DNA of 64,000 bases from an uncultured Candidatus Rokubacteria bacterium (GTDB taxonomy: Bacteria; Methylomirabilota; Methylomirabilia; Rokubacteriales; CSP1-6). The first letter of the stretch is position 1, and every line of letters starts with the position of its first letter. This document shows positions 16,116 to 31,923 of the stretch, piece by piece. The notes beneath the pieces were generated by a model that saw only the letters and a list, made by a program, of their open reading frames with translations, was not told where the DNA came from and made no database searches. The position numbers and the translations under genes are program-made. The stretch lies in the NCBI GenBank assembly GCA_963771355.1, contig CAVYTA010000001.1, forward strand, positions 64,001 through 128,000, in the 5' to 3' direction.

Positions 16116-19100
16116 GTGACCCTCGATCCTCGCGCGCTCAACTCGCTCCGCTGGCGCTCTGTCGGCCCGCACCGCGGCGGCCGCGTGGTGGCGGTGGCCG
16201 GCCATCCCACCGAGCCCTCGACCTTCTACTTCGGGGCCTGCGCCGGCGGGGTGTGGAAGACCACCGACGGCGGCACCTACTGGGAGAACGTCTCCGACGG
16301 CTTCTTCGAGACGGCCGCGGTGGGGGCCATCGCGGTGGCGCCGTCGGCGCCCAGTGTGGTCTACGCGGGCACCGGGGAGGCATGCATCCGCGGCAACGTC
16401 TCCCACGGCGACGGCGTCTACCGCTCCGACGACGGCGGCCGCACGTGGAGAAACGTGGGATTGAAGGACAGCCGGCACATCGGCCGCGTGCGCGTGCACC
16501 CGCGCGATCCCGACACCGTGTACGTGGCAGCGCTGGGGCGTGCCTGGGGGCCGAACCGCGAGCGCGGCGTGTTCCGCTCGCGCGACGGGGGCGCCACCTG
16601 GCAGCACGTCCTCGCCAAGAGCGAGCGGGCGGGGGCGGTGGATCTCTCGCTGGATCCGGCGAATCCGCGCAGCCTCTTCGCGGCGGTGTGGCAGGCCCAG
16701 CGGTTTCCTTCGCGCATGTCGAGCGGCGGCCCCGAGTCCGGCCTCTGGCAGTCCACCGACGGCGGCGACACGTGGACCGATATCAGCCGGAACCCGGGGC
16801 TGCCGCGCGGCGTGCTCGGGCGCATCGGCGTGGCTGTCTCGCCCGCCGACGGCCGGCGCGTCTACGCGGTGGTGGAAGCCGAGGACGGCGCGCTGTTCCG
16901 ATCGGACGACGCCGGGGCCACCTGGCAGCGCGGCAGCGAGGAGGCGGGACTGCGCGGCCGGCCCTGGTACTACATGCACGTGGTGGCCGATCCCACCGAC
17001 GTGGACACCGTCTGGATCATGGACTACTCGCTGTGGAAGTCCATCGACGGCGGCAAGACCTTCGTCGAGTGGGCGACGCCGCACGGCGACAACCACGACC
17101 TCTGGATCGATCCCACCGACGCGCGCCGGATGATCGAGGGCAATGACGGCGGCGCCTGCGTCTCCTTCAACGGCGGACTGTCCTGGTCGACCATCTACAA
17201 TCAGCCCACCGCGCAGTTCTACCACGTGTGCGCGGACGATCAGCAGCCGTACCGGATCTACGGCTCCCAGCAGGACAACTGGGCGATCAGCCTGCCCAGC
17301 CAGTCCCATCGCGGCGCCATCACCCCCATCGACTGGGTGCAGCCGGGCGGCGGGGAGAGCGGCTACATCGCGGTGAAGCCCGGGGATCCCAGCATCGTGG
17401 TGGGGGGCGCGGTGGGCAGCGGGCCCGGCATGGGCCGGCTCATCCACTACGACCATCGCACCGGGCAGGAGCGCATCATCAGCGTGTGGCCCGAGGGCTA
17501 TGGCATGGGCACGCCGCCCTCCGAGCACCGCTACCGGTTCCAGTGGACGTTCCCGGTGTTCTACTCGCGCTGGGAGCCGCGCGAGCTGTGGATCGCGGGC
17601 AACCGCATCTTCCGCTCCGTGGACGACGGACAGCACTGGGAGATCGCCAGTGACGATCTCACCCGCAACGACGTGACGAAGATGGGGCCGTCGGGCGGGC
17701 CCATCACCAACGACAATACCGGCGCCGAGGTCTACGGCACCATCTTCGCGCTGGTGGAGTCGCCGCACGAGCGCGACGTGCTGTGGGCGGGCACCGACGA
17801 CGGGCTGGTCCACCTCTCCCGCGATCGCGGGCGGAGCTGGCAGCCGGTGACGCCGCCGGAGCTGCCCGAGTGGGCGCTGATCAGCGTGCTGGAGCCCTCG
17901 CCGCACGACGCGGCTACCTGCTACCTGGCGGCCACGCGCTACAAGCACGACGACACGCGCCCCTATCTCTTCCGGACCACGAACTACGGGGGCACCTGGA
18001 CCCGGATCAGCGACGGCCTGCCGGCGGGCGAGTTCACGCGGGTGATCCGCGAGGATCCGGCCCGGCGTGGGCTCTTGTACTGCGGCACCGAGACCGGGGT
18101 GTGGGTGTCGCTCGACGACGGCGGGTCCTGGACGCGGCTGCGCGGCAATCTGCCGGTGGCGCCCATCCACGACCTCGTCGTCAAGAACGGCGACCTCGTC
18201 GCGGCCACCCACGGACGCTCCTTCTGGATCCTCGACGACCTCTCCCCCCTGCATCAGATGGCGGATGCGATCACCACCGCCGACGCCCAGCTCCTGGTGC
18301 CACGCCGGACGGTCCGGTGGCGGGCGTACAAGGGACACGGGATGAAGCCGGGACCCAACCGCGAGGTCGCTTACAACATGGCCGGGTCCCTCGGGTATGC
18401 CTATCGGCAGGTGGAATCACCATCGGGCGAGAAGGAAGCACGGCTCCTCGACGCGGGCGAGAATCCGCCCGGCGGCGTGATCGTGCATTACTGGCTGCGC
18501 GAGGCGCCGGCCGGTGAGGTGGTGATCACCTTCCTCGACGGCGACGGGCGCGAGATCCGCTCGTTCACGAGCCGGAAGGACAAGGTGACGCCGGAGAGCC
18601 CGGGGGCGGCGGCCGGCGGCGGGGAAGAGCCGCAGCCCGCGCTGGACCCGCCGGCGCCGGAAAAGGGCGACGAGCCGCATCCGACCCGGAGCGCGGGCGC
18701 CAATCGCTTCGTCTGGAACCTGCGGGGACCCGACGCGACCAAGCTCCCCGATAACAAGGGCCGGGGCGGCACCATGGACATGCTGGCGGGACCACGCGTC
18801 CCGCCGGGGACCTATCAGGTGCGGCTGTCCGTCAGCGGCCGCACGATCATGCAGCGCTTCGAGCTCGTGAAGGATCCGCGGGTGCCCGCCTCGGACGCGG
18901 ATCTCCGCGAGCAGTACACGTTGGCGAAGAAGGCCCATGACCTCCTCTCGCGCGTGCACGACGAGGTGCTGCGGATTCGCGACGTCCGCGCCCAGGCGGA
19001 AGGTTGGGCGGGGCGCGTGGACAACCCCGCCATCAAGGGGGCCGCCGCGACGCTCGCGCGCACGCTGACCACCATCGAGGAGGCGCTGATCCAGGTGCGC

Positions 19101-19349
19101 TCCGAGGACCCGCGCATGCATCCCGCCAAGCTCAATACCCGGATCGGCACCATGGTCACGCTCATCGAGTACTCCGACGCCGCCCCTACCCAGGCCCTCC
19201 GCGAGCTGACCGACGATCTTGCCCGCCGGGCCGAGGCGGAGCTGGCCCGGCTGGACCGGACTCTCGCGGACGACGTCGCCCGGTTCAACGCGCTCTGCCG
19301 GGACCATGGCGTCGCCGCCATCGTCCCGAAGCCGCGCGAGGGGGGCTGA
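16116..19349 (+). CDS. VPS10/BNR-repeat glycosyl-hydrolase-like beta-propeller protein
   Basis: Repeated Asp-box S/TxDGGxTW, N-terminal WRSVGPHRGGRV, ATHGRSFWILDD. No signal peptide visible. Confidence 0.88.
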   Translation: MTLDPRALNSLRWRSVGPHRGGRVVAVAGHPTEPSTFYFGACAGGVWKTTDGGTYWENVSDGFFETAAVGAIAVAPSAPSVVYAGTGEACIRGNVSHGDGVYRSDDGGRTWRNVGLKDSRHIGRVRVHPRDPDTVYVAALGRAWGPNRERGVFRSRDGGATWQHVLAKSERAGAVDLSLDPANPRSLFAAVWQAQRFPSRMSSGGPESGLWQSTDGGDTWTDISRNPGLPRGVLGRIGVAVSPADGRRVYAVVEAEDGALFRSDDAGATWQRGSEEAGLRGRPWYYMHVVADPTDVDTVWIMDYSLWKSIDGGKTFVEWATPHGDNHDLWIDPTDARRMIEGNDGGACVSFNGGLSWSTIYNQPTAQFYHVCADDQQPYRIYGSQQDNWAISLPSQSHRGAITPIDWVQPGGGESGYIAVKPGDPSIVVGGAVGSGPGMGRLIHYDHRTGQERIISVWPEGYGMGTPPSEHRYRFQWTFPVFYSRWEPRELWIAGNRIFRSVDDGQHWEIASDDLTRNDVTKMGPSGGPITNDNTGAEVYGTIFALVESPHERDVLWAGTDDGLVHLSRDRGRSWQPVTPPELPEWALISVLEPSPHDAATCYLAATRYKHDDTRPYLFRTTNYGGTWTRISDGLPAGEFTRVIREDPARRGLLYCGTETGVWVSLDDGGSWTRLRGNLPVAPIHDLVVKNGDLVAATHGRSFWILDDLSPLHQMADAITTADAQLLVPRRTVRWRAYKGHGMKPGPNREVAYNMAGSLGYAYRQVESPSGEKEARLLDAGENPPGGVIVHYWLREAPAGEVVITFLDGDGREIRSFTSRKDKVTPESPGAAAGGGEEPQPALDPPAPEKGDEPHPTRSAGANRFVWNLRGPDATKLPDNKGRGGTMDMLAGPRVPPGTYQVRLSVSGRTIMQRFELVKDPRVPASDADLREQYTLAKKAHDLLSRVHDEVLRIRDVRAQAEGWAGRVDNPAIKGAAATLARTLTTIEEALIQVRSEDPRMHPAKLNTRIGTMVTLIEYSDAAPTQALRELTDDLARRAEAELARLDRTLADDVARFNALCRDHGVAAIVPKPREGG

Positions 19350-21785: not shown

Positions 21786-21896
21786 GCCGACCATCCTGCC
21801 CGGAGGCCGTGTCATGGTCAAGCTTGCCCGGAAGCGCGAGGGCGTCCCGCCCAGAACCGGGACGCCCTCGTTATCGATAGAGCTCGAGACGCTCGC

Positions 21897-23693
21897 TCAG
21901 ACGGGTCCGTACTGCCGTCGCAACGATTCGAGCAGCGCCTGAACGGGCCACGCCTGGCCCACGCCCACGAGCGAGGTCTGTACGTACAGCGGATCGACCA
22001 TGGTGCTGCCGATGCCGGCGCCGAGCGGGACGCTCGAAACCGCCGGTGCGAACTCCCGCCGCTCCGGACCCGGCTGCAGAACCCGTTCGAGCCCGTGGAG
22101 TCGAGGCAAGCCCGCGCCGCTGCGGCCGGGGCCGAAGGGGTAGGGGACGCACATCGATCGGATCGTGTTGAAGAGCGCGGCGACGCGCTCCTGGGTCCGG
22201 GCGCGCAGCGGCCCGAGGAAGGCGGGATGATGGGCGAGCAAGAGGGCGGCGAGACCGGTCACGTGGGGCGCCGCCATCGAGGTGCCCGACTGCGACTCGA
22301 AGCCGCCGGGGACGGTGGACACGATAGCCACGCCCGGAGCGCACACCGCCACCTCCGGGCCGATACAGCTGAAGCTCGGCGAGAAAATGCCATCCGGGGC
22401 GATCAGGCTGGGCCGCACCGTGGTGGCCTCCCACGTCTCGTCCGGATACTCGTTGAGGCGCCCGACCGCGCCGACCCCGAGCGTATAGGGCGATGACGCC
22501 GGATAGAGCACCGGGCCGCCGGAATTGCCTCCCGCCACGACGCAGGCGATCCCATGGAGCGCGGCCTCCTCGAGCTTCTGCTCGATCGCGAGCGAGCGCT
22601 GCACGCTACCTAGGCTCAGGTTGACGACGTCGATCTCGAGATCGAGGCAATAGTTCAGGGCCTCGAGGAGGCTGCTGAACCGGCCGCCCGGGAATACCTT
22701 CACCACATGGATCTCCGCCTCCGGCACGAAGCCGCGAAGCGCCTTGCCCGATTCGTCATGGGCGGCGATGATACCGGCGCAGTGCGAGCCGTGACCGACG
22801 ACGTCGTGCGTCCAGGTTTGAGCGTCGGCGCCGTTCATCAGGTCCACGCCGTGCCGGATGTGGCGAAGCAGCGAGTGGGTGGTGTCCACCCCGGAATCCA
22901 CGATAGCGATCCGCACCCCCTTACCCGTGAGTGTCTCCGGGAGTCGGTCGAGGCCCATCTGGCGCTGTCCCCACCCATACCGGAAGTTCCCCGGGAACCC
23001 GACCAGGGTCTCCTCGATGGCGCGGAGCCGGACCACGTTGACCTCGCCGTCCAGCAGCTCCGGCTCGGTGAGGTAGACATCCCAGTAGTTGCTCGGCGCG
23101 CTCGCAAACAGGGAGCGCGGGCGCTGCCCCGGCAGCGTGAGCAGGGGCAGGGTGATCTCGCCCCGCTTGTCCGTTCGTCCCTCCTGGGGGAAGCCCTCAC
23201 CGGCGAGGCTCACGCCGACATGGGCGAGCGGCTTCTCGGCGTCGCCGATCACCCGGAAGCGGATCTGGCGGGTCTCGACGCTGCCGGCATGGTTCCAGGA
23301 GGCGAGCCGCGTCGGCGCGGGGCGTGAGAGTCCGGCCGGCGTCCCGTATTCGAGCGCAGCGTCCTCCTCGAGGAGGAGCGGCGGGGGAAGCATCTGGCTG
23401 ACCAGCTCCGCACGGTCGTGATCGATTCGCACCACGTACACCTCGGTCGCCTCGTCGGGGACCAGCGAGTAGGCGGAGACCGCCCGTCGCGGGCGTAGCA
23501 CGCGCACGATGTCCAGACCCGGAAGCTGTCCGATCACGGCGCGCACGGCGCCGGCCGGCATGGGCCGTAGGCCTGCGTTGAGTGCCTGGCTTCCACGCCG
23601 CGGGGCGAGGATGAACTGCCGCTTGCCTTGCTGCAGGATTCGCGTCGCCGGCGGCGGCGTCACGCTCGGGGGCCTGATGCCTTCATCGGCCAT
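21897..23693 (-). CDS. S8 (subtilisin-like) serine peptidase with a long N-terminal region and no signal peptide
   Basis: Catalytic triad IAIVDSG / GHGSHCAG / SGTSMAAPHV and oxyanion AGGN. RBS ggagg before ATG 23693. Confidence 0.93.
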   Translation of the reverse strand: MADEGIRPPSVTPPPATRILQQGKRQFILAPRRGSQALNAGLRPMPAGAVRAVIGQLPGLDIVRVLRPRRAVSAYSLVPDEATEVYVVRIDHDRAELVSQMLPPPLLLEEDAALEYGTPAGLSRPAPTRLASWNHAGSVETRQIRFRVIGDAEKPLAHVGVSLAGEGFPQEGRTDKRGEITLPLLTLPGQRPRSLFASAPSNYWDVYLTEPELLDGEVNVVRLRAIEETLVGFPGNFRYGWGQRQMGLDRLPETLTGKGVRIAIVDSGVDTTHSLLRHIRHGVDLMNGADAQTWTHDVVGHGSHCAGIIAAHDESGKALRGFVPEAEIHVVKVFPGGRFSSLLEALNYCLDLEIDVVNLSLGSVQRSLAIEQKLEEAALHGIACVVAGGNSGGPVLYPASSPYTLGVGAVGRLNEYPDETWEATTVRPSLIAPDGIFSPSFSCIGPEVAVCAPGVAIVSTVPGGFESQSGTSMAAPHVTGLAALLLAHHPAFLGPLRARTQERVAALFNTIRSMCVPYPFGPGRSGAGLPRLHGLERVLQPGPERREFAPAVSSVPLGAGIGSTMVDPLYVQTSLVGVGQAWPVQALLESLRRQYGPV

Positions 23694-23730
23694 TGGGGGA
23701 TCCTCCATGGTAGACGGTGTTTCCGTTCCC

Positions 23731-23764
23731 GATGGGGCGGACGGTCCCGGCCGTCCGCCCCATC
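23731..23764. repeat. Perfect 14-bp inverted repeat (intercistronic hairpin)
   Basis: gatggggcggacgg-tcccgg-ccgtccgccccatc between the Q-rich gene and the peptidase. Confidence 0.85.
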
Positions 23765-23816
23765 CCGCTGTCGAGCCGGTCTACGTCACGAAACGCTGCA
23801 TCAGCAGGACGCTGCA

Positions 23817-24267
23817 TCAGCCGGCGTAGGTCAGGATGCCGCGACCCGCCGCGCCGGAATACTGGGGCTGTCCCGCCCAGCCCCCGGTGGCCTGCCAGGG
23901 CGACGGCCAGAGCTGCGACTGGCCATACTGCGGCTGGCCGAACGGCGACTGCCCGAACGGCGCACTGCCCGAACGGCTGCATCTGCCCGAACTGTGGCGG
24001 CCCGAACTGGCCCGGCACATGGCCAAAGAGACTCTGCGGGGTCAAGCCGGCCAGGGGCGACCCGGCAATCTGCTGTGTGAGGCCGGCGAGCTGCGCTTGC
24101 TGAAGGCTCTGTGCCACCAGGTTCACGATCGAGCTCTGCGGGACGAGGCCGATGATCGGCACGAAGCCCGCCATCGGCGGCTGGCCGAACTGCTGGTACG
24201 GCCCGGGCTGGTGTCCGAGCGCTCCTAGGGGTGCGAACGCGTGCTGGGTGGAGGTGTCGAACATCAT
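23817..24267 (-). CDS. Gln/Pro/Gly-rich low-complexity protein with (S/Q)PFGQ repeats, apparent 1-nt insertion near 23963
   Basis: RBS aaaggag before ATG 24267. ORFs 23683-24267 and 23817-24026 join if one base is removed from the 15-bp repeat (cagtgcgccg to cagtcgccg), giving ~149 aa ending GILTYAG. Confidence 0.75.
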
Positions 24268-24320
24268 TCGGACTCCTTTCTGGTGTCTGGGATGAGGTAC
24301 CGGCCGACGTGGAGAGGCAT

Positions 24321-24336
24321 CGCAATCCGCTTGCCA
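24321..24336 (-). promoter_or_regulatory. sigma-54 (-24/-12) promoter
   Basis: TGGCAAGCGGATTGCG (GG-N10-GC), about 55 nt upstream of the Q-rich gene. Confidence 0.75.
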
Positions 24337-24528
24337 GCTTCGGCAGACGACGGCAAGACGCTACCGACAAATGCATTTCTCGATCTGGTCGATGGGGGCG
24401 CGGATTGCCGTGCGCGGAAGCGGGCGCCAGAGCGCCACACGTGCGGCATCCCGAGCTCGAGAGGAGGAGCGGAAGTTCGGGAGCTTAGCGGCGGTGTGGC
24501 GGTTCCGCCCGCGGTGAGCGCCCGCGTC

Positions 24529-25533
24529 TCACTGGCGCTCGCCCGGAGAGATCCCGTGCCGCTTGGTCAGCCGATAGAGCGTGCGGCGGTGGATACCGAG
24601 GAGCTGGGCGGCGAGCTTCTTGTTCCACCCCGCTTCTTTCAGCGCCCGCCGCAAATGGCCTTTGACCACCTCTTGAAGGCTCAAGGGCGGTGCGGCGGCG
24701 GCTCCCGCCCCTTCGACGGCATCGACGAGCTTGCGCGGCAGGTCCTCAGGGGAGAGGAGGGAACTCGCGCTCAGGGCGGCGGCCTGCTCGACGGCGTGCT
24801 GGAGCTCACGGACGTTTCCAGGCCAGTCGTAGGCGACGAGCCGGGCCATGGCCTCGGGGGTGATGCGGCACGCCGGCCGGGCGTTCACGTCGGCGTAGGC
24901 TTCCAGGAAATGACGCGCGAGGAGGGGGATGTCCTCACGGCGCTCCCGCAGCGGAGGCAGGGAGATCGTCACGACGCTCAGCCGGTAAAAGAGATCCTCC
25001 CGGAACTTGCCGTCCGCGACGAGCGCGCCCAGATCCTTGTTCGTGGCGGCGATGACCCGGACGTCGACCTTGAAGCGATCGGTTCCGCCTACCCGCCGCA
25101 CCTCGCGCTCCTGGAGCACGCGCAGGAGGCGCGCCTGCACGCCGGGGCTGACCTCGCCGATCTCATCGAGGAAGCACGTCCCTCCCCCCGCCACCTCGAA
25201 GAGTCCCCGCTTGTCCGCGACGGCGCCGGTGAAGGCCCCCTTTGTATGGCCGAAGAGCTCGGTCTCCAGCAGGCTTTCCGCGAGCGCGCTGCAGTCGACG
25301 GGGACGAACGGCTGGTCGCTCCGGCGGCTCGCGGTATGGACGGCCCGCGCGATCAGCTCCTTGCCGGTGCCGGTCTCTCCCTGGATGAGGACGGTGCTCG
25401 TCGTCGGGGCCACGCGCGCGACCATCCGGTACACCTCGAGCATCGGCTCCGCGATGCCCACGATACCGTGGATCTCGCCGCTCGGATCGGTCGCCGCCGG
25501 GGCGGTCTCCGTGAACCGGGACTGGGCCATCAC
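24529..25533 (-). CDS. sigma-54 enhancer-binding protein (AAA+ and Fis-type HTH) without an N-terminal regulatory domain
   Basis: GETGTGKE, ELFGHTKGAFTGA, FLDEIGE, WPGNVREL and a C-terminal HTH. Only ~22 residues precede the AAA+ domain. Confidence 0.93.
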   Translation of the reverse strand: MMAQSRFTETAPAATDPSGEIHGIVGIAEPMLEVYRMVARVAPTTSTVLIQGETGTGKELIARAVHTASRRSDQPFVPVDCSALAESLLETELFGHTKGAFTGAVADKRGLFEVAGGGTCFLDEIGEVSPGVQARLLRVLQEREVRRVGGTDRFKVDVRVIAATNKDLGALVADGKFREDLFYRLSVVTISLPPLRERREDIPLLARHFLEAYADVNARPACRITPEAMARLVAYDWPGNVRELQHAVEQAAALSASSLLSPEDLPRKLVDAVEGAGAAAAPPLSLQEVVKGHLRRALKEAGWNKKLAAQLLGIHRRTLYRLTKRHGISPGERQ

Positions 25534-25674
25534 TTCCTCCTTCGACGCGGTCGAGGGTCGGTCATTCGGGGATGTCGGTGGACGCGTGCGTTCGGAGGTG
25601 ACGACGGATCAGTGCGGACTATCGTGGCGCGGAGTTAGAGTCATTTCGGTGACGTTCGGACTCTCGACGAATTC

Positions 25675-25704
25675 ACGCTAGCCCCGGCATCGGGGGGCTG
25701 TCAA
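25675..25704 (-). promoter_or_regulatory. Possible sigma-70 promoter for the activator gene
   Basis: Minus strand TTGACA-N18-TAGCGT. Confidence 0.45.
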
Positions 25705-28526: not shown

Positions 28527-29348
28527 CTACTCCAAGAATCCGTTCAGCTCCGGCGTGGGCACCGACGTGTCCACGTACACGAAGGTCCCCCTGTCCTTCA
28601 CCTCGCGCGCGGCGGCGAGGAGTCCCGTCATCGCCGCGCGGTAGAGTGAGGTGGCGAGGCTGATCCGCTTCACGCCCGCCGCCGTCAGCTCGGCCACCGT
28701 GAACGACTTGCCCTTGATGCCCACCATGAAGTTGAACGGCTTCTTCAGCGCCGCGCACACTGCCTTCACCGAGGCCAGATCGGGCAGCCCCGGCGCGAAG
28801 AGCACGTCGGCCCCCGCCTGCTCGAAGGCCTGGAGCCGCGCGATGGTGTCGGCCAGGTCCGGATTGCCGCGCAGGAAATTCTCCGACCGCGCGGTGAGGG
28901 TGAACGGGAAGGGCAGCGCGCGTGCCGCCTTCACCGAAGCCGCCACGCGCTCGGCGGCGGTGGCGAGATCGTAGAGCGGCCTATCCTTGTCGCCGGTGGC
29001 GTCCTCGATGGAGCCGCCGATGAGGCCCACCTCCGCGGCGCGGCGGATGGTCTCGGCCGCGTCCGACGGCTTGTCGCCGAAGCCTTTTTCCAGATCCGCC
29101 GCCACCGGGAGGTCGGTGGCCAGCACGATGGCGCGGGCATGGGCCAGCGCCTCGTCGCGCGACACCTTGCCGTCGCGGCGACCGAGCGTGCCGGCCTGCG
29201 CCCCGCTCGAGGTGGCCAGGGCCTGGAAGCCGAGGCCGGCGAGGATGCGCGCGGAGGCGCCGTCCCAGGGATTGGGAATCACGAAGGAGCCGGGCGCCTC
29301 GTGCAGCGCGCGGAAACGAATGGCCTTGTCCTGCTGGCTGGTGGGCAT
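28527..29348 (-). CDS. Isocitrate lyase/PEP mutase family protein
   Basis: PNPWDGASA, ATSS, ADLEKGF, GGSIED, GADVLFAPG. Confidence 0.9.
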   Translation of the reverse strand: MPTSQQDKAIRFRALHEAPGSFVIPNPWDGASARILAGLGFQALATSSGAQAGTLGRRDGKVSRDEALAHARAIVLATDLPVAADLEKGFGDKPSDAAETIRRAAEVGLIGGSIEDATGDKDRPLYDLATAAERVAASVKAARALPFPFTLTARSENFLRGNPDLADTIARLQAFEQAGADVLFAPGLPDLASVKAVCAALKKPFNFMVGIKGKSFTVAELTAAGVKRISLATSLYRAAMTGLLAAAREVKDRGTFVYVDTSVPTPELNGFLE

Positions 29349-30410
29349 CAGGCGTTCCTGTAGGCGGCCAGCACCGCCTGCGCCATCGCGCGGGTGGTGG
29401 CGGTGCCGCCCTGGTCGGGAGTGAGGGTCTTGCCGTCGCGGTAGACGCGGCCCACCGCGGCCTCGAGGCGCTGGGCATCGGCGCCCAGGCCCATGTGCTC
29501 GAGCATGAGCGCGGCGGAGAGAATGGTCGCGGTGGGATTGGCGATGCCGCGTCCCGCGATGTCGGGAGCGGAGCCATGGACCGACTCGAAATACGCCCAG
29601 CCGTCGTCGCCGAAGTTGCCCGAGGGCGCCAGCCCGAGCCCGCCGGCGGTCTCCGCGCCCAGGTCCGAGAGGATGTCGCCGTAGAGGTTCATGCAGAGGA
29701 CCACGTCCATGGACTTCGGGAAAGCGCACCAGGCGCCGCGCGGCGTCGTCCACGTGGAAGTGCTCGAACTCGATCCCGCTCGCCGCGCGCACCACGCGCT
29801 CGGCGATCTCCTGGAAGAGCCCGTCGGTCTGGCGCATCACGTTCGACTTGGTGACGCAGGTCACCTTGCCGGGCTTGCCCCGCGCCTTGCGCTTCTTGGC
29901 GAGATCGGCGGCGAAGCGGGCGATGCGCTCGGCGCCGCGCGGCGTGACCACCTTCACCGCGAAGCGGCCCTCGGTGCCGTACTCCTTCAGGGTCCGCCCG
30001 GTGCGGTCGCTGAGGTCGGGCATGAGCCGGACGAGATCGGCCAGCTGGCCCTCGCGCCCCGGATAGATCCCTTCGCTGTTCTCGCGGAGGAGCACATAGT
30101 CGATGCCCTCGGGATCGGCCAGCGGCGAGCGCATCCCCGGGTAGAACCGGATCGGCCGGATGCCGGCCCACGCGCTCATCTCCCAGCGAAGCCAGGACAC
30201 CACCTGCGAGGTGGCCGGACCGGCGGCGCCGAAGAGTACGCCATCCGCCTCGCGCGCGGCCCGCTTGGTTTCCTCCGGCAGCGGCGCGCCCTGTGGCGGC
30301 GTGAGAATCTTGAGCGGCAGGCCCGTGCCCATCAGGAGCTCGCAGGTGGCGTCCACCACCTCGATCCCGATGCCCTCGCCGGGCAGCGCGACGATCGTCT
30401 TCATGGCCAT
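29348..30410 (-). CDS. Isocitrate/isopropylmalate/tartrate dehydrogenase family, frameshift near 29715
   Basis: [20 protein letters not shown], then in a second frame NLYGDILSD and [13 protein letters not shown]. Confidence 0.88.
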
Positions 30411-30444
30411 CAGGGATTCCTCCTTTGGAGGGCCTACGATAGCA

Positions 30445-31923
30445 CTAGAGTGGTTGCTGCGACTGGGCCAGGCAGAAGGCGTTGAGATAGGGCTCGAGCG
30501 CGCGGGACAGCTCGCGCCGCCCGTGGGTCGCGGTGGCGAGCCGCTCCACCGCCTCGGCGACGCGGTCGCGGAGCCGTGCTTCATCCACCGAAACCATCCG
30601 ACCGCCCTGAAGGACCCAGCGTCCCGCGATCATCACCCCATCGATGGCCAGCCCGCTCTCGCCATTCACGACCTGGAGCGTCACGTCGCGCAACGGCACG
30701 TAGCTCACGTGCCGGAGATCGAGAAAGACCAGATCGGCCTGGTACCCCTCGGCGACGCGGCCGAGCTGGGGAAAGCCGAGCAGAGCGGCGCCGCCGGCGG
30801 TGGCCATCAGGAGGACGTCATCGACCGAGAGCCACTCACGCGGATCACCGGTACGGACGCGGGAGAGATAGGCGGCGAGACGGAGGGCCTCGAACACGCT
30901 TTGAGAATCCGAGGTGTTGGCGCCGTCGGTGCCGATCGCCATCCGGACGCCGGCGGCGTGGAGCGCGTGAGCGGGCGCGATGCCCGAGCCGAGGCGAAGA
31001 TTGCTCAGGGGATTGTGGGCCACCGCCGCTCCGCGGTCGGCCAGGCGACGGATGTCGTCGGCGTCGATCCAGATCGCATGCGCCGCGCTGAACGCCGGCC
31101 CGAGCAAGCCGAGTGACTCGAGGTGGGCGGTGAGGCTCCGGCCGTAGCGCGCTCGGCCCGCGAGCGCCTGCACCTTCGACTCCGCGAGGTGGGTCTGGAG
31201 CGGCGCATGCCACTCCCGCGCCAGATCCCGGCAGCCGGTGAGCAGCTCGTCCGTGCAGTGGAGCGGGATGGTAGGTCCGAGGCCGGGAAGGAGCCGGGAG
31301 CGATCGAAGGGCCAGCGCTGGAGAATCTCGCGGCAGGCGGCGAGGCTGGTCTCGGTGGGCGCGGCCTGGATGCGGCGGAGCCGCTCGCGCTCCGCTTCCG
31401 GAAACGCGTCCAGCAGGCCGGGGATGGCCGCATAGAGCGTGCGATCGCTGATCATCGGGGCCACCACCGCGCGGAGCCCGACTTCGCGATAGCCCTCCGC
31501 CACCGCGAACACCCCCTCGACGCTCGGGACGGGAAACTCGACGAAGAGGTCATAGCAGGCGGTGGAGCCCTTGCGCACCATCTCCACCGCCGAGAGCATC
31601 GCGCAGAGCCGCTTGTCCTCGAGCGTCCGCTCGGCGGTGATGGTGGGGTTCGCGTTGAGCAAGAGCTCCAGCGACCAGCGATCGCCCGCGAGGCCCTTGC
31701 CGAGGGCGCCGTGGGCATGCGTGTGGGCGTTGACGAGCCCGGGCAGGAGCAGGCGATCCCGCGCGTCGATGACCTCGGCCTCGGGCGGCGCGGCGAGCCC
31801 GGGCGGGCCGACCGCGCGAATGGTGTCGCCCTCGAGCAGGACGTCAGCGGGCTCCCCGCGATGAGCGGGCAGGCTCAGGATGCGGCCGCCACGGATGACC
31901 TGGAACCGGCGCGGGGCGGACAT
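30445..31923 (-). CDS. Amidohydrolase (AtzA/TrzA/deaminase-like)
   Basis: PGLVNAHTH, THLAE, AHAIW, HNPLSNLRLGSG, IGTDG. Confidence 0.9.
   Translation of the reverse strand: MSAPRRFQVIRGGRILSLPAHRGEPADVLLEGDTIRAVGPPGLAAPPEAEVIDARDRLLLPGLVNAHTHAHGALGKGLAGDRWSLELLLNANPTITAERTLEDKRLCAMLSAVEMVRKGSTACYDLFVEFPVPSVEGVFAVAEGYREVGLRAVVAPMISDRTLYAAIPGLLDAFPEAERERLRRIQAAPTETSLAACREILQRWPFDRSRLLPGLGPTIPLHCTDELLTGCRDLAREWHAPLQTHLAESKVQALAGRARYGRSLTAHLESLGLLGPAFSAAHAIWIDADDIRRLADRGAAVAHNPLSNLRLGSGIAPAHALHAAGVRMAIGTDGANTSDSQSVFEALRLAAYLSRVRTGDPREWLSVDDVLLMATAGGAALLGFPQLGRVAEGYQADLVFLDLRHVSYVPLRDVTLQVVNGESGLAIDGVMIAGRWVLQGGRMVSVDEARLRDRVAEAVERLATATHGRRELSRALEPYLNAFCLAQSQQPL

Follow-up and report, generated by a model that had tools for sequence, protein, structure and literature searches.

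In a 64,000-nucleotide stretch of the genome of an uncultured Candidatus Rokubacteria bacterium (assembly GCA_963771355.1, contig CAVYTA010000001.1, positions 64,001 to 128,000; hereafter the window), whose nearest named relatives are Methylomirabilota/Rokubacteria assemblies, we analysed a minus-strand locus (21897–25704) that encodes, in this order, a transcriptional activator, a sigma-54 promoter box, a glutamine-rich (Q-rich) partner protein, a hairpin and a subtilisin-like protease of the S8 family. The Q-rich gene and the protease gene form a widespread gene pair that is apparently undescribed, one copy of which is carried by the Rokubacteria genome. We favour, at somewhat better than even chances, the reading that the locus is the Rokubacteria version of a precursor-plus-subtilisin module, in which the S8 protease would cut its Q-rich neighbour after the motif [L/F]-x-P-Q and free, inside the cell, short hydrophobic segments that are predicted to be helical and to bind membranes or self-associate. 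As judged from the sequences, the system is best read as a protease-only form of intracellular release resembling that of ribosomally synthesised peptides with modification after translation (RiPPs).

The signal-less S8 family and its Q-rich partners

The protease gene of the window (21897–23693, minus strand) encodes an S8 enzyme composed of an I9-like prodomain (residues ~22–115), an immunoglobulin (Ig)-like/CarboxypepD_reg-like insert (~135–230), a subtilisin domain (~235–535) and a low-confidence tail ending in a terminal helix. Counted from the second residue, the intact catalytic set is D265/H300/N389/S471. The N-terminus has no hydrophobic stretch, and both findings agree with a first-pass annotation of the window, made from the letters alone, which had noted a complete triad and no signal peptide. 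The AF2 model (pLDDT 89) is structurally closest to pro-subtilisin E in its unprocessed form (Z 44.4, rmsd 2.6, 344 aligned residues). The Pfam matches of the insert to Big_1 and CarboxypepD_reg are weak and each occurs in 14 of 59 family members. Homologues with full-length coverage are 50–91% identical, and a profile search returned well over 100 full-length S8 clusters at 50% identity. They are carried by Rokubacteria, Oxalobacteraceae, Cupriavidus, Bacillus and Streptomyces, named carriers being Cupriavidus necator, Bacillus sp. and plasmids of Streptomyces and Kitasatospora. A simple hydropathy test detected no signal-like stretch in 233 full-length family S8s or in 116 partners. Among 149 S8 representatives, 12 are incomplete, 105 carry the DHNS set and about 20 of the 137 complete ones deviate at Asp, His or Ser; these catalytically dead members had been overlooked in the first-pass annotation. 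In the loci in which every triad position could be scored as intact or substituted, DHNS is kept in 57 of 67.

The same annotation had proposed that the low-complexity protein is a dedicated partner of the protease, in a precursor–hairpin–protease layout, and that similar genes with a sigma-54 motif might recur upstream of the protease homologues. A gene that is Q-rich or carries the PQ motif lies directly upstream of the S8 gene in 62 of 70 family loci, as scored by script, versus none of 99 other S8 loci. Of the eight loci missed by the script, five prove on inspection to have a Q-rich gene, another offers too little sequence, and the remaining two (L119 and L147) are distant relatives. After collapsing at 60% S8 identity the linkage holds in 18 of 20 cases, including four partners added by eye. 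A chance neighbourhood was rejected for the pair; the dedicated partner and the layout are strongly supported and conserved across phyla, while the sigma-54 motif proved to be confined to one clade. The family loci come mostly from a metagenome motif scan with at least 120 matches, of which 80 were examined; 73 were family members and 7 were dropped. With 8 other loci this gave 81, reduced to 70 by the removal of 11 without 500 nt of upstream sequence or without the S8 start. The controls comprise 80 reused loci from a diverse-alignment scan that had given generic S8 patterns in viral contigs.

The pair was seen in Rokubacteria, Streptomyces, Kitasatospora and a Bacillus-like locus, and homologues of the partner in Duganella, Massilia, Rugamonas, Noviherbaspirillum, Pseudoduganella and Steroidobacter, nearly all annotated as hypothetical. 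The partner genes have no Pfam or NCBIfam match above cut-off, and the canonical precursor, searched with the low-complexity filter on, has no match in plasmids or phages. Several loci occupy fixed chromosomal sites, beside efp/earP, gltX or a lactate permease gene. The literature searched, also by motif, contains no description of the family, in line with the earlier remark that no described pathway has this composition; most subscription journals and supplements lay outside the coverage, so the family could be listed there.

The relatives revealed what could not be seen from the window: partners are precursors made of several cassettes between fixed flanking motifs, and in most cases a stand-alone I9-like gene separates the partner gene from that of the protease. 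Tandem arrays are present in 41 of 66 partners and comprise 119 cassettes, 114 of them 44–46 amino acids (aa) long. The cassettes start at [L/F/M]xPQ↓G(F/W/L), where the arrow marks the predicted cut, and end at GR(L/M/F)LPF; next come x[A/V/M]DP and a polyglutamine (polyQ) spacer. Some of these flank positions were fixed by the search pattern; outside them, P4 is L or F in 82% and P1′ is Gly in 94%, with F-x-[AVM]-D-P on the far side. All 116 partner homologues that start with Met carry one to six cassettes. The cores are of glycine-zipper type (31% Gly, mean GRAVY 0.55, mostly +1, 0% Cys), and those of canonical precursors were modelled with moderate confidence (pLDDT 62) as helix-turn-helix, a fold search with this model retrieving generic helical hairpins only (best Z 6.0). 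Partners contain about 20% Gln, L136, L162 and L174 being low in it, and what is conserved in them is the core, rich in Gly, rather than the Gln spacer. The cores vary by clade while the Gln-ending site stays: ELQ↓SFW in L118, L121 and L174, VQPQ↓D in L010 and IEVQ↓GW in L183.

Some of these variants deserve description. In L118 (1791–2957), L121 and L174, at least four near-identical repeats starting from ELQ↓SFW, each a cationic amphipathic helix, are followed by an I9-like gene and the S8 gene. Two genes precede the family S8 in L183 (1311–2207, plus strand), each encoding an acidic leader, a Gln and a basic/amphipathic core, and the first of them resembles the precursor of a cationic antimicrobial peptide. 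A Bacillus-like repeat precursor, a small I9-like gene and an S8 gene lie at the edge of a prophage contig (L010, 1–2162). Canonical precursors terminate in T[L/V/I]H in 97 of 116 cases, an ending that to us is reminiscent of C-terminal His degrons for Lon. The two distant relatives have other neighbours: the S8 gene of L147 (2554–6654, plus strand) is downstream of an open reading frame (ORF) with Pro-rich heptad repeats that is accompanied by a TIGR03975 radical SAM methyltransferase gene (671 bits), and that of L119 (minus strand) is downstream of a Pro-rich heptad repeat ORF accompanied by two methyltransferase genes, one of which we take to resemble borosin enzymes. Both are candidate new RiPP clusters.

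The stand-alone I9-like ORF (76–120 aa, between partner and S8 in 42 loci) resembles the prodomain of the S8 itself, and both share a conserved Leu at the end, at the place matching the cut motif. Three loci (L123, L149 and L179) have a different small helical protein of 94–119 aa in this position, common to all three. In a sister S8 group (L238/G097, L239/G079 and the plasmid loci L110, L112 and L113) the S8 gene adjoins a gene of 80–90 aa, I9-like by eye in L238 and L239, and no Q-rich precursor is adjacent. Triad-defective S8s are found in L027, L028 and L029 (Streptomyces/Kitasatospora plasmids), L168 and L191, with Q-rich partners in which a central helical domain replaces the cassettes; for another, in G163, no partner was found on a contig that begins 57 nt 5′ of the S8 gene.

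Activator, partner frame and hairpins in the Rokubacteria locus

The activator gene (24529–25533, minus strand) encodes a sigma-54 enhancer-binding protein (bEBP) of 334 aa with Sigma54_activat, an AAA lid and HTH_8, a Fis-type helix-turn-helix (HTH), in Pfam. The earlier observation of an activator with GAFTGA and without a sensory domain holds: the motif lies at residue 99, Pfam finds no sensory domain, and six orthologues (69–76% identical) all lack an N-terminal sensor domain. The −24/−12 promoter that had been read from the sequence was located at 24322–24336 on the minus strand (TGGC-N7-TTGC). Its TGGCA and TTGC are invariant in all eight aligned loci, and RpoN is encoded in the genome. 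A bEBP with GAFTGA and HTH, a −24/−12 box and a genomic RpoN give the locus the sequence features expected of a sigma-54-dependent transcription unit.

The box is present in 9 of 9 activator-bearing loci versus 1 of 44 others (0.96 expected by shuffling); it follows the activator, and the sigma-54 module is an addition of one Rokubacteria clade, not a feature of the whole family. In a quick tree, which excludes rows with fewer than 330 columns or more than 85% identical, the activator-bearing loci form a single clade that includes the window (support 99) and is devoid of the stand-alone I9-like gene. A palindrome, GTGAG-N9-CTCAC (24514–24532), spans the stop codon of the activator gene, with the −24 box about 195 nt further downstream. 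Its halves TGAG and CTCA are invariant in eight of eight aligned loci, a conservation for which the stop codon may partly account, and the HTH is nearly identical across seven bEBP orthologues. This joint conservation fits a dedicated site, and the palindrome is a candidate for binding by the activator. It is likely that the pair is switched on here by its own sigma-54 activator. A genome-wide regulon search gave three palindrome-plus-box pairs, with about two expected by a rough estimate; the two besides that of the locus were dropped, being inside coding-like sequence. The activator gene may itself have a weak sigma-70-like promoter (25675–25704, minus strand; perfect −35, 18-nt spacer, −10 matching at 3 of 6 positions), which falls under the threshold of a promoter scan that reported none. 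Six public RNA runs contain 0.06–0.41 of the words of the whole window, a figure for all 64,000 nucleotides taken together.

The ribosome-binding site described earlier as strong was located at 24273–24281 (minus strand), and a similar A/G-rich site is present in aligned relatives. It precedes the partner gene (23817–24267, minus strand), of which the announced low-complexity ORF of ~149 aa stands if one base at ~23963 is read through; as assembled, the ORF runs from 24267 to 23683 (194 aa) and loses its Q/P/G frame after codon 101, a one-base frameshift that the first-pass annotation had missed. The orthologues in L001 and L003 are intact. In two public DNA runs of near strains (X1 and X5, two contigs each, with all their depth there) one base at 23963 is missing, and in a third (X7) 16 bases are missing, corresponding to one 15-nt repeat plus one; the last of the four runs, X14, has no coverage of the place. 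The runs come from near strains, which need not be identical to the source strain. Each of the three runs with coverage puts the gene back in frame, which makes an assembly error the likely cause. The window has another apparent shift of frame, at ~29350, which also speaks for indel errors in the assembly. This shift lies in a 685-aa ORF (28527–30584, minus strand), an apparent fusion of what we take to be a dehydrogenase-like and a PEP-mutase-like gene, with the true continuation in ORF 29710–29348, and is probably another assembly indel.

Read through, the partner is uncharged and rich in Q, G, P and aromatic residues (Q17/G16/P13%, one Asp, one Arg, no Cys), with short FGQ repeats; the earlier label “prion-like” stands as a description of this composition, which is its sole basis. 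The two predicted cuts fall behind 24136 (LVPQ44↓S) and behind 24034 (LTPQ78↓S), and two such LxPQ↓S motifs arise in 0.26% of shuffles. The window partner has the N-side motif only, of the two that flank canonical cassettes, and the partners of its clade are, in sequence, degenerate. A genome search detected no second partner-like gene. The predicted complex of the S8 (residues 130–545) with partner residues 30–101 scored 0.17, the mark being 0.32, and speaks neither way.

The perfect 14-bp hairpin reported earlier between partner and protease was located at 23731–23764 (minus strand), with similar stems in L001, L003, L154, L165, L173 and L184. The surrounding 121-nt region folds with a z of −2.8 (4 of 200 shuffles equally good), and 41 of 65 loci have a stem of at least 10 bp in the interval from partner to S8, versus 6.3 expected (G-U pairs allowed, block shuffle). 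A role as intrinsic terminator was rejected because the hairpin has no U-tract; a terminator scan found none. Directly 3′ of the protease gene is a GC-rich 12-bp hairpin (21838–21869, minus strand), also without U-tract and without a score in that scan. An Rfam search gave three matches, all below threshold and at chance level.

Elsewhere in the window, a 1077-aa repeat-propeller-like protein without obvious signal peptide, presumably of BNR/VPS10 type, is encoded at 16116–19349 (plus strand), preceded by a small hydrophobic ORF of 76 aa without Pfam match.

The proposed release mechanism and alternative explanations

In the mechanism that we propose, the sensor-less activator would bind the palindrome and open the sigma-54 promoter, a single transcript would carry partner and protease, and the U-less stem would keep the partner mRNA in excess. 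The S8 protein would arise in zymogen form, its active site predicted to be covered by the I9-like prodomain, and would then mature; in other clades the stand-alone I9-like protein could be a second brake, whereas the clade of the window lacks this gene and has the putative sigma-54 switch. Cuts at LxPQ↓G and LLPF↓ would free, in canonical members, Gly-zipper helical hairpins of 44–46 aa from soluble polyQ spacers, while cuts after LVPQ44 and LTPQ78 of the window partner would give a partly amphipathic 34-aa helix and an uncharged Q/G/P/aromatic tail of 71 aa. Because signal peptides are missing and no exporter or tailoring enzyme adjoins the 15 loci scanned, the products are expected to act in the cytoplasm or inner membrane of the producer, or to exit only by lysis. 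A hydrophobic P4 with Pro at P2 is the classic subtilisin preference, and both flanks of the cassette have these features. The motif is present in 45 of 49 partners of intact S8s versus 0 of 7 partners of triad-defective ones.

Several points weigh against this reading. The cut motif was defined after seeing the data; alternative definitions give 42/49 vs 2/7 (p 0.003) and 46/49 vs 4/7 (p 0.02), and the link with catalysis is not significant once kin are collapsed at 60% (p 0.10–0.22), so that we treat the association as a supporting trend, not as proof. Triad-defective S8s retain a Q-rich partner at seven loci, in at least four lineages. Cleavage would then not be the whole story, and these dead proteases with a kept partner argue for a second, non-catalytic role of the S8. 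A full cassette is missing from the window partner (10.4 bits for its best domain when scored with the cassette profile, for the first 101 residues; L177, of the same clade and outside the set from which the profile was built, reaches 39.8 bits), and the partner profile of its clade resembles the canonical one only at the PQG motif (HHalign 7%). Cleavage of the partner, co-transcription and the product are predictions from sequence. The locus sample is biased, consisting of 80 of at least 120 matches to one motif carried by about a quarter of the representatives, and the control S8 loci are mostly viral contigs (96 of 101). Of 251 genomes from the phylum only 4 carry the module, and its presence is patchy, for instance in 2 of the 7 other genomes of the genus; two further genomes of the phylum have a more distant S8 with a small downstream gene. 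Finally, the subtilisin PopC of Myxococcus xanthus is secreted without signal peptide (PMC6434023, in its accessible text), so a cytoplasmic site is not proven for the S8 here.

The strongest alternative, although unlikely in our view, is that the cores leave the cell as antimicrobials of bacteriocin-like type, perhaps in cyclised form, the genes for export and immunity being located elsewhere. Hydrophobic Gly-zipper cores would suit it, as would a weak PF13436 match (E 0.019), one homologue named “glycine zipper family protein”, the cationic amphipathic cores of L118/L121/L174 and L183, and the RiPP enzymes adjoining the two distant relatives (L147, TIGR03975, 671 bits). The flanks are also like the cyanobactin sites GLTPH/L and FAGDDAE, as given in the accessible text of PMC9366434 and bioRxiv 2020.03.17.996157. 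However, none of 64 neighbouring ORFs in 15 loci (18 of them without Pfam match) encodes an ABC/HlyD/TolC exporter, a C39 peptidase or a tailoring enzyme. Signal peptides are missing, Asp and His of the S8 are spaced by 35 residues without a PatG-type insert, several loci sit at fixed chromosomal sites, and the cores of the window are degenerate and uncharged.

The retention of Q-rich partners by triad-defective S8s in at least four lineages could also mean that the partner has a structural role and assembles by itself into a granule, a coat or an amyloid-like polymer, largely uncut, with the S8 fold mainly a binding partner or assembly factor. We consider this still somewhat less likely. The uncharged, Q/G/P/aromatic-rich window protein with its FGQ repeats and the Ig-like insert, as a non-catalytic surface, would be in keeping with it, but DHNS is kept in 57 of 67 scored loci, the window triad is intact, and fixed-length cassettes with invariant flanks suit cutting better than a scaffold. 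High Pro content, moreover, disfavours amyloid, and the window partner has 13% Pro.

Much less probable is a glutamine (nitrogen) store in the manner of seed prolamins, which sigma-54 would control and the protease would mobilise. Nitrogen control is a frequent task of sigma-54, partners have about 20% Gln and their polyQ spacers vary in length; on the other hand, the Gly-rich core is conserved and the Gln spacer is not, L136, L162 and L174 are low in Gln, sigma-54 control occurs in one clade only, and a store would be co-induced with the enzyme that degrades it. Equally improbable is decay of the module in this genome, with a real frameshift and a degenerate partner without product: the one-base shift in the assembly, the lack of a full cassette and the presence of the module in only 2 of 7 other genus genomes would agree with it, but the three covering runs restore the frame, another window gene shifts frame at ~29350, promoter, palindrome, hairpin and triad are intact, and the orthologues of L001 and L003 are whole.

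If intracellular release by the S8 protease is confirmed, the pair would represent an unannotated class of ribosomal peptide systems, overlooked by genome mining that starts from tailoring enzymes or exporters. The family supplies hundreds of new natural peptide cores and a group of subtilisins whose predicted cut follows Pro-Gln. Natural polyglutamine spacers are rare in bacteria, as are S8 pseudoproteases that keep a conserved partner, and the family offers a case of each. The phylum of the window organism is uncultured, but cultured hosts exist in Duganella, Massilia, Cupriavidus, Bacillus and Streptomyces.

Relation to known systems

The combination of a multi-core precursor with subtilisin is already known from cyanobactins (PMC12814516; bioRxiv 2020.03.17.996157; PMC9366434, each in its accessible text). 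According to these parts of the sources, PatA/PatG and PagA/PagG share with the family one or more cytoplasmic subtilisin-like proteases, a multi-core precursor and recognition sequences on both sides of the core, an arrangement found here in 41 of 66 partners, the window partner having the N-side motif only. The similarity extends to the sites themselves, GLTPH/L and FAGDDAE in cyanobactins (PMC9366434; bioRxiv 2020.03.17.996157) compared with GLTPQ and F[SA]ADP here. In contrast, the family has one protease instead of two, cores of 44–46 aa instead of 6–20, no heterocyclase or prenyltransferase, and an I9-like prodomain, an Ig-like insert and a stand-alone I9-like gene of its own. Membership of the window S8 among PatA/PatG was rejected (TIGR03895, 29.2 bits for a cut-off of 421). 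In PatG an insertion sits between Asp and His; it is absent from the window S8, in which this spacing is 35 residues and the model is subtilisin-like. The insertion is described as a capping helix in the protease domain (bioRxiv 2020.03.17.996157, accessible part).

Three other S8-containing systems were considered and rejected. A LanP system was dismissed in view of 0% Cys in the cores, a window partner without Cys and no LanB/C/M/KC enzyme near 15 loci; type VII mycosins in view of TIGR03921 (118.6 vs 278.75 bits) and no hydrophobic N-terminus; and IetAS/IetS in view of weak, partial IetS matches of at most 32 bits and no partner AAA ATPase among the neighbours. Fungal kexin systems use dibasic sites and have an oxidase partner, whereas the present module is bacterial, without signal peptide, with Gln/Phe instead of dibasic sites and no oxidase partner. 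In the gigA/kexB epichloecyclin clusters, tandem peptide repeats are encoded with a clustered S8-clan protease (PMC10540207, accessible text).

PspF and HrpR/S are sensor-less sigma-54 activators, with which the bEBP of the window shares an architecture of AAA+ and HTH alone and the position next to its target promoter. It scores 281 bits for the PspF family, whose cut-off is 444, and remains below every NCBIfam cut-off; in comparison with the PspF type, no anti-activator gene was identified at the locus.

PopC, compared by description, is a subtilisin that likewise lacks a signal peptide; it has an extension at its N-terminus and is paired with a small inhibitor, PopD. It cuts one surface protein, p25, and the accessible text describes no repeat precursor (PMC6434023).

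Among product types, the glycine-zipper bacteriocins and microcins (CdzC/D, class II) also have Gly-rich hydrophobic helical hairpin cores. The family cores resemble this type (31% Gly, GRAVY 0.55; PF13436 below cut-off), and the window partner does not; the family has several cores per gene and no double-glycine leader, and neither the 64 ORFs of the 15 loci nor the surroundings of the window locus contain a C39-ABC or type I exporter. A broader and rather doubtful version of our reading would unite these features as a cross-phylum, export-free peptide release, in which several polyQ-solubilised glycine-zipper hairpins stored in one gene would be freed, upon a signal, by a zymogen subtilisin restrained both by its own propeptide and by a stand-alone I9 one, and would permeabilise or remodel the producer's own membrane, with a pseudoprotease-assisted polymer in some lineages and a private sigma-54 switch in Rokubacteria. 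The system would then be a peptide counterpart of protease-activated pore formers.

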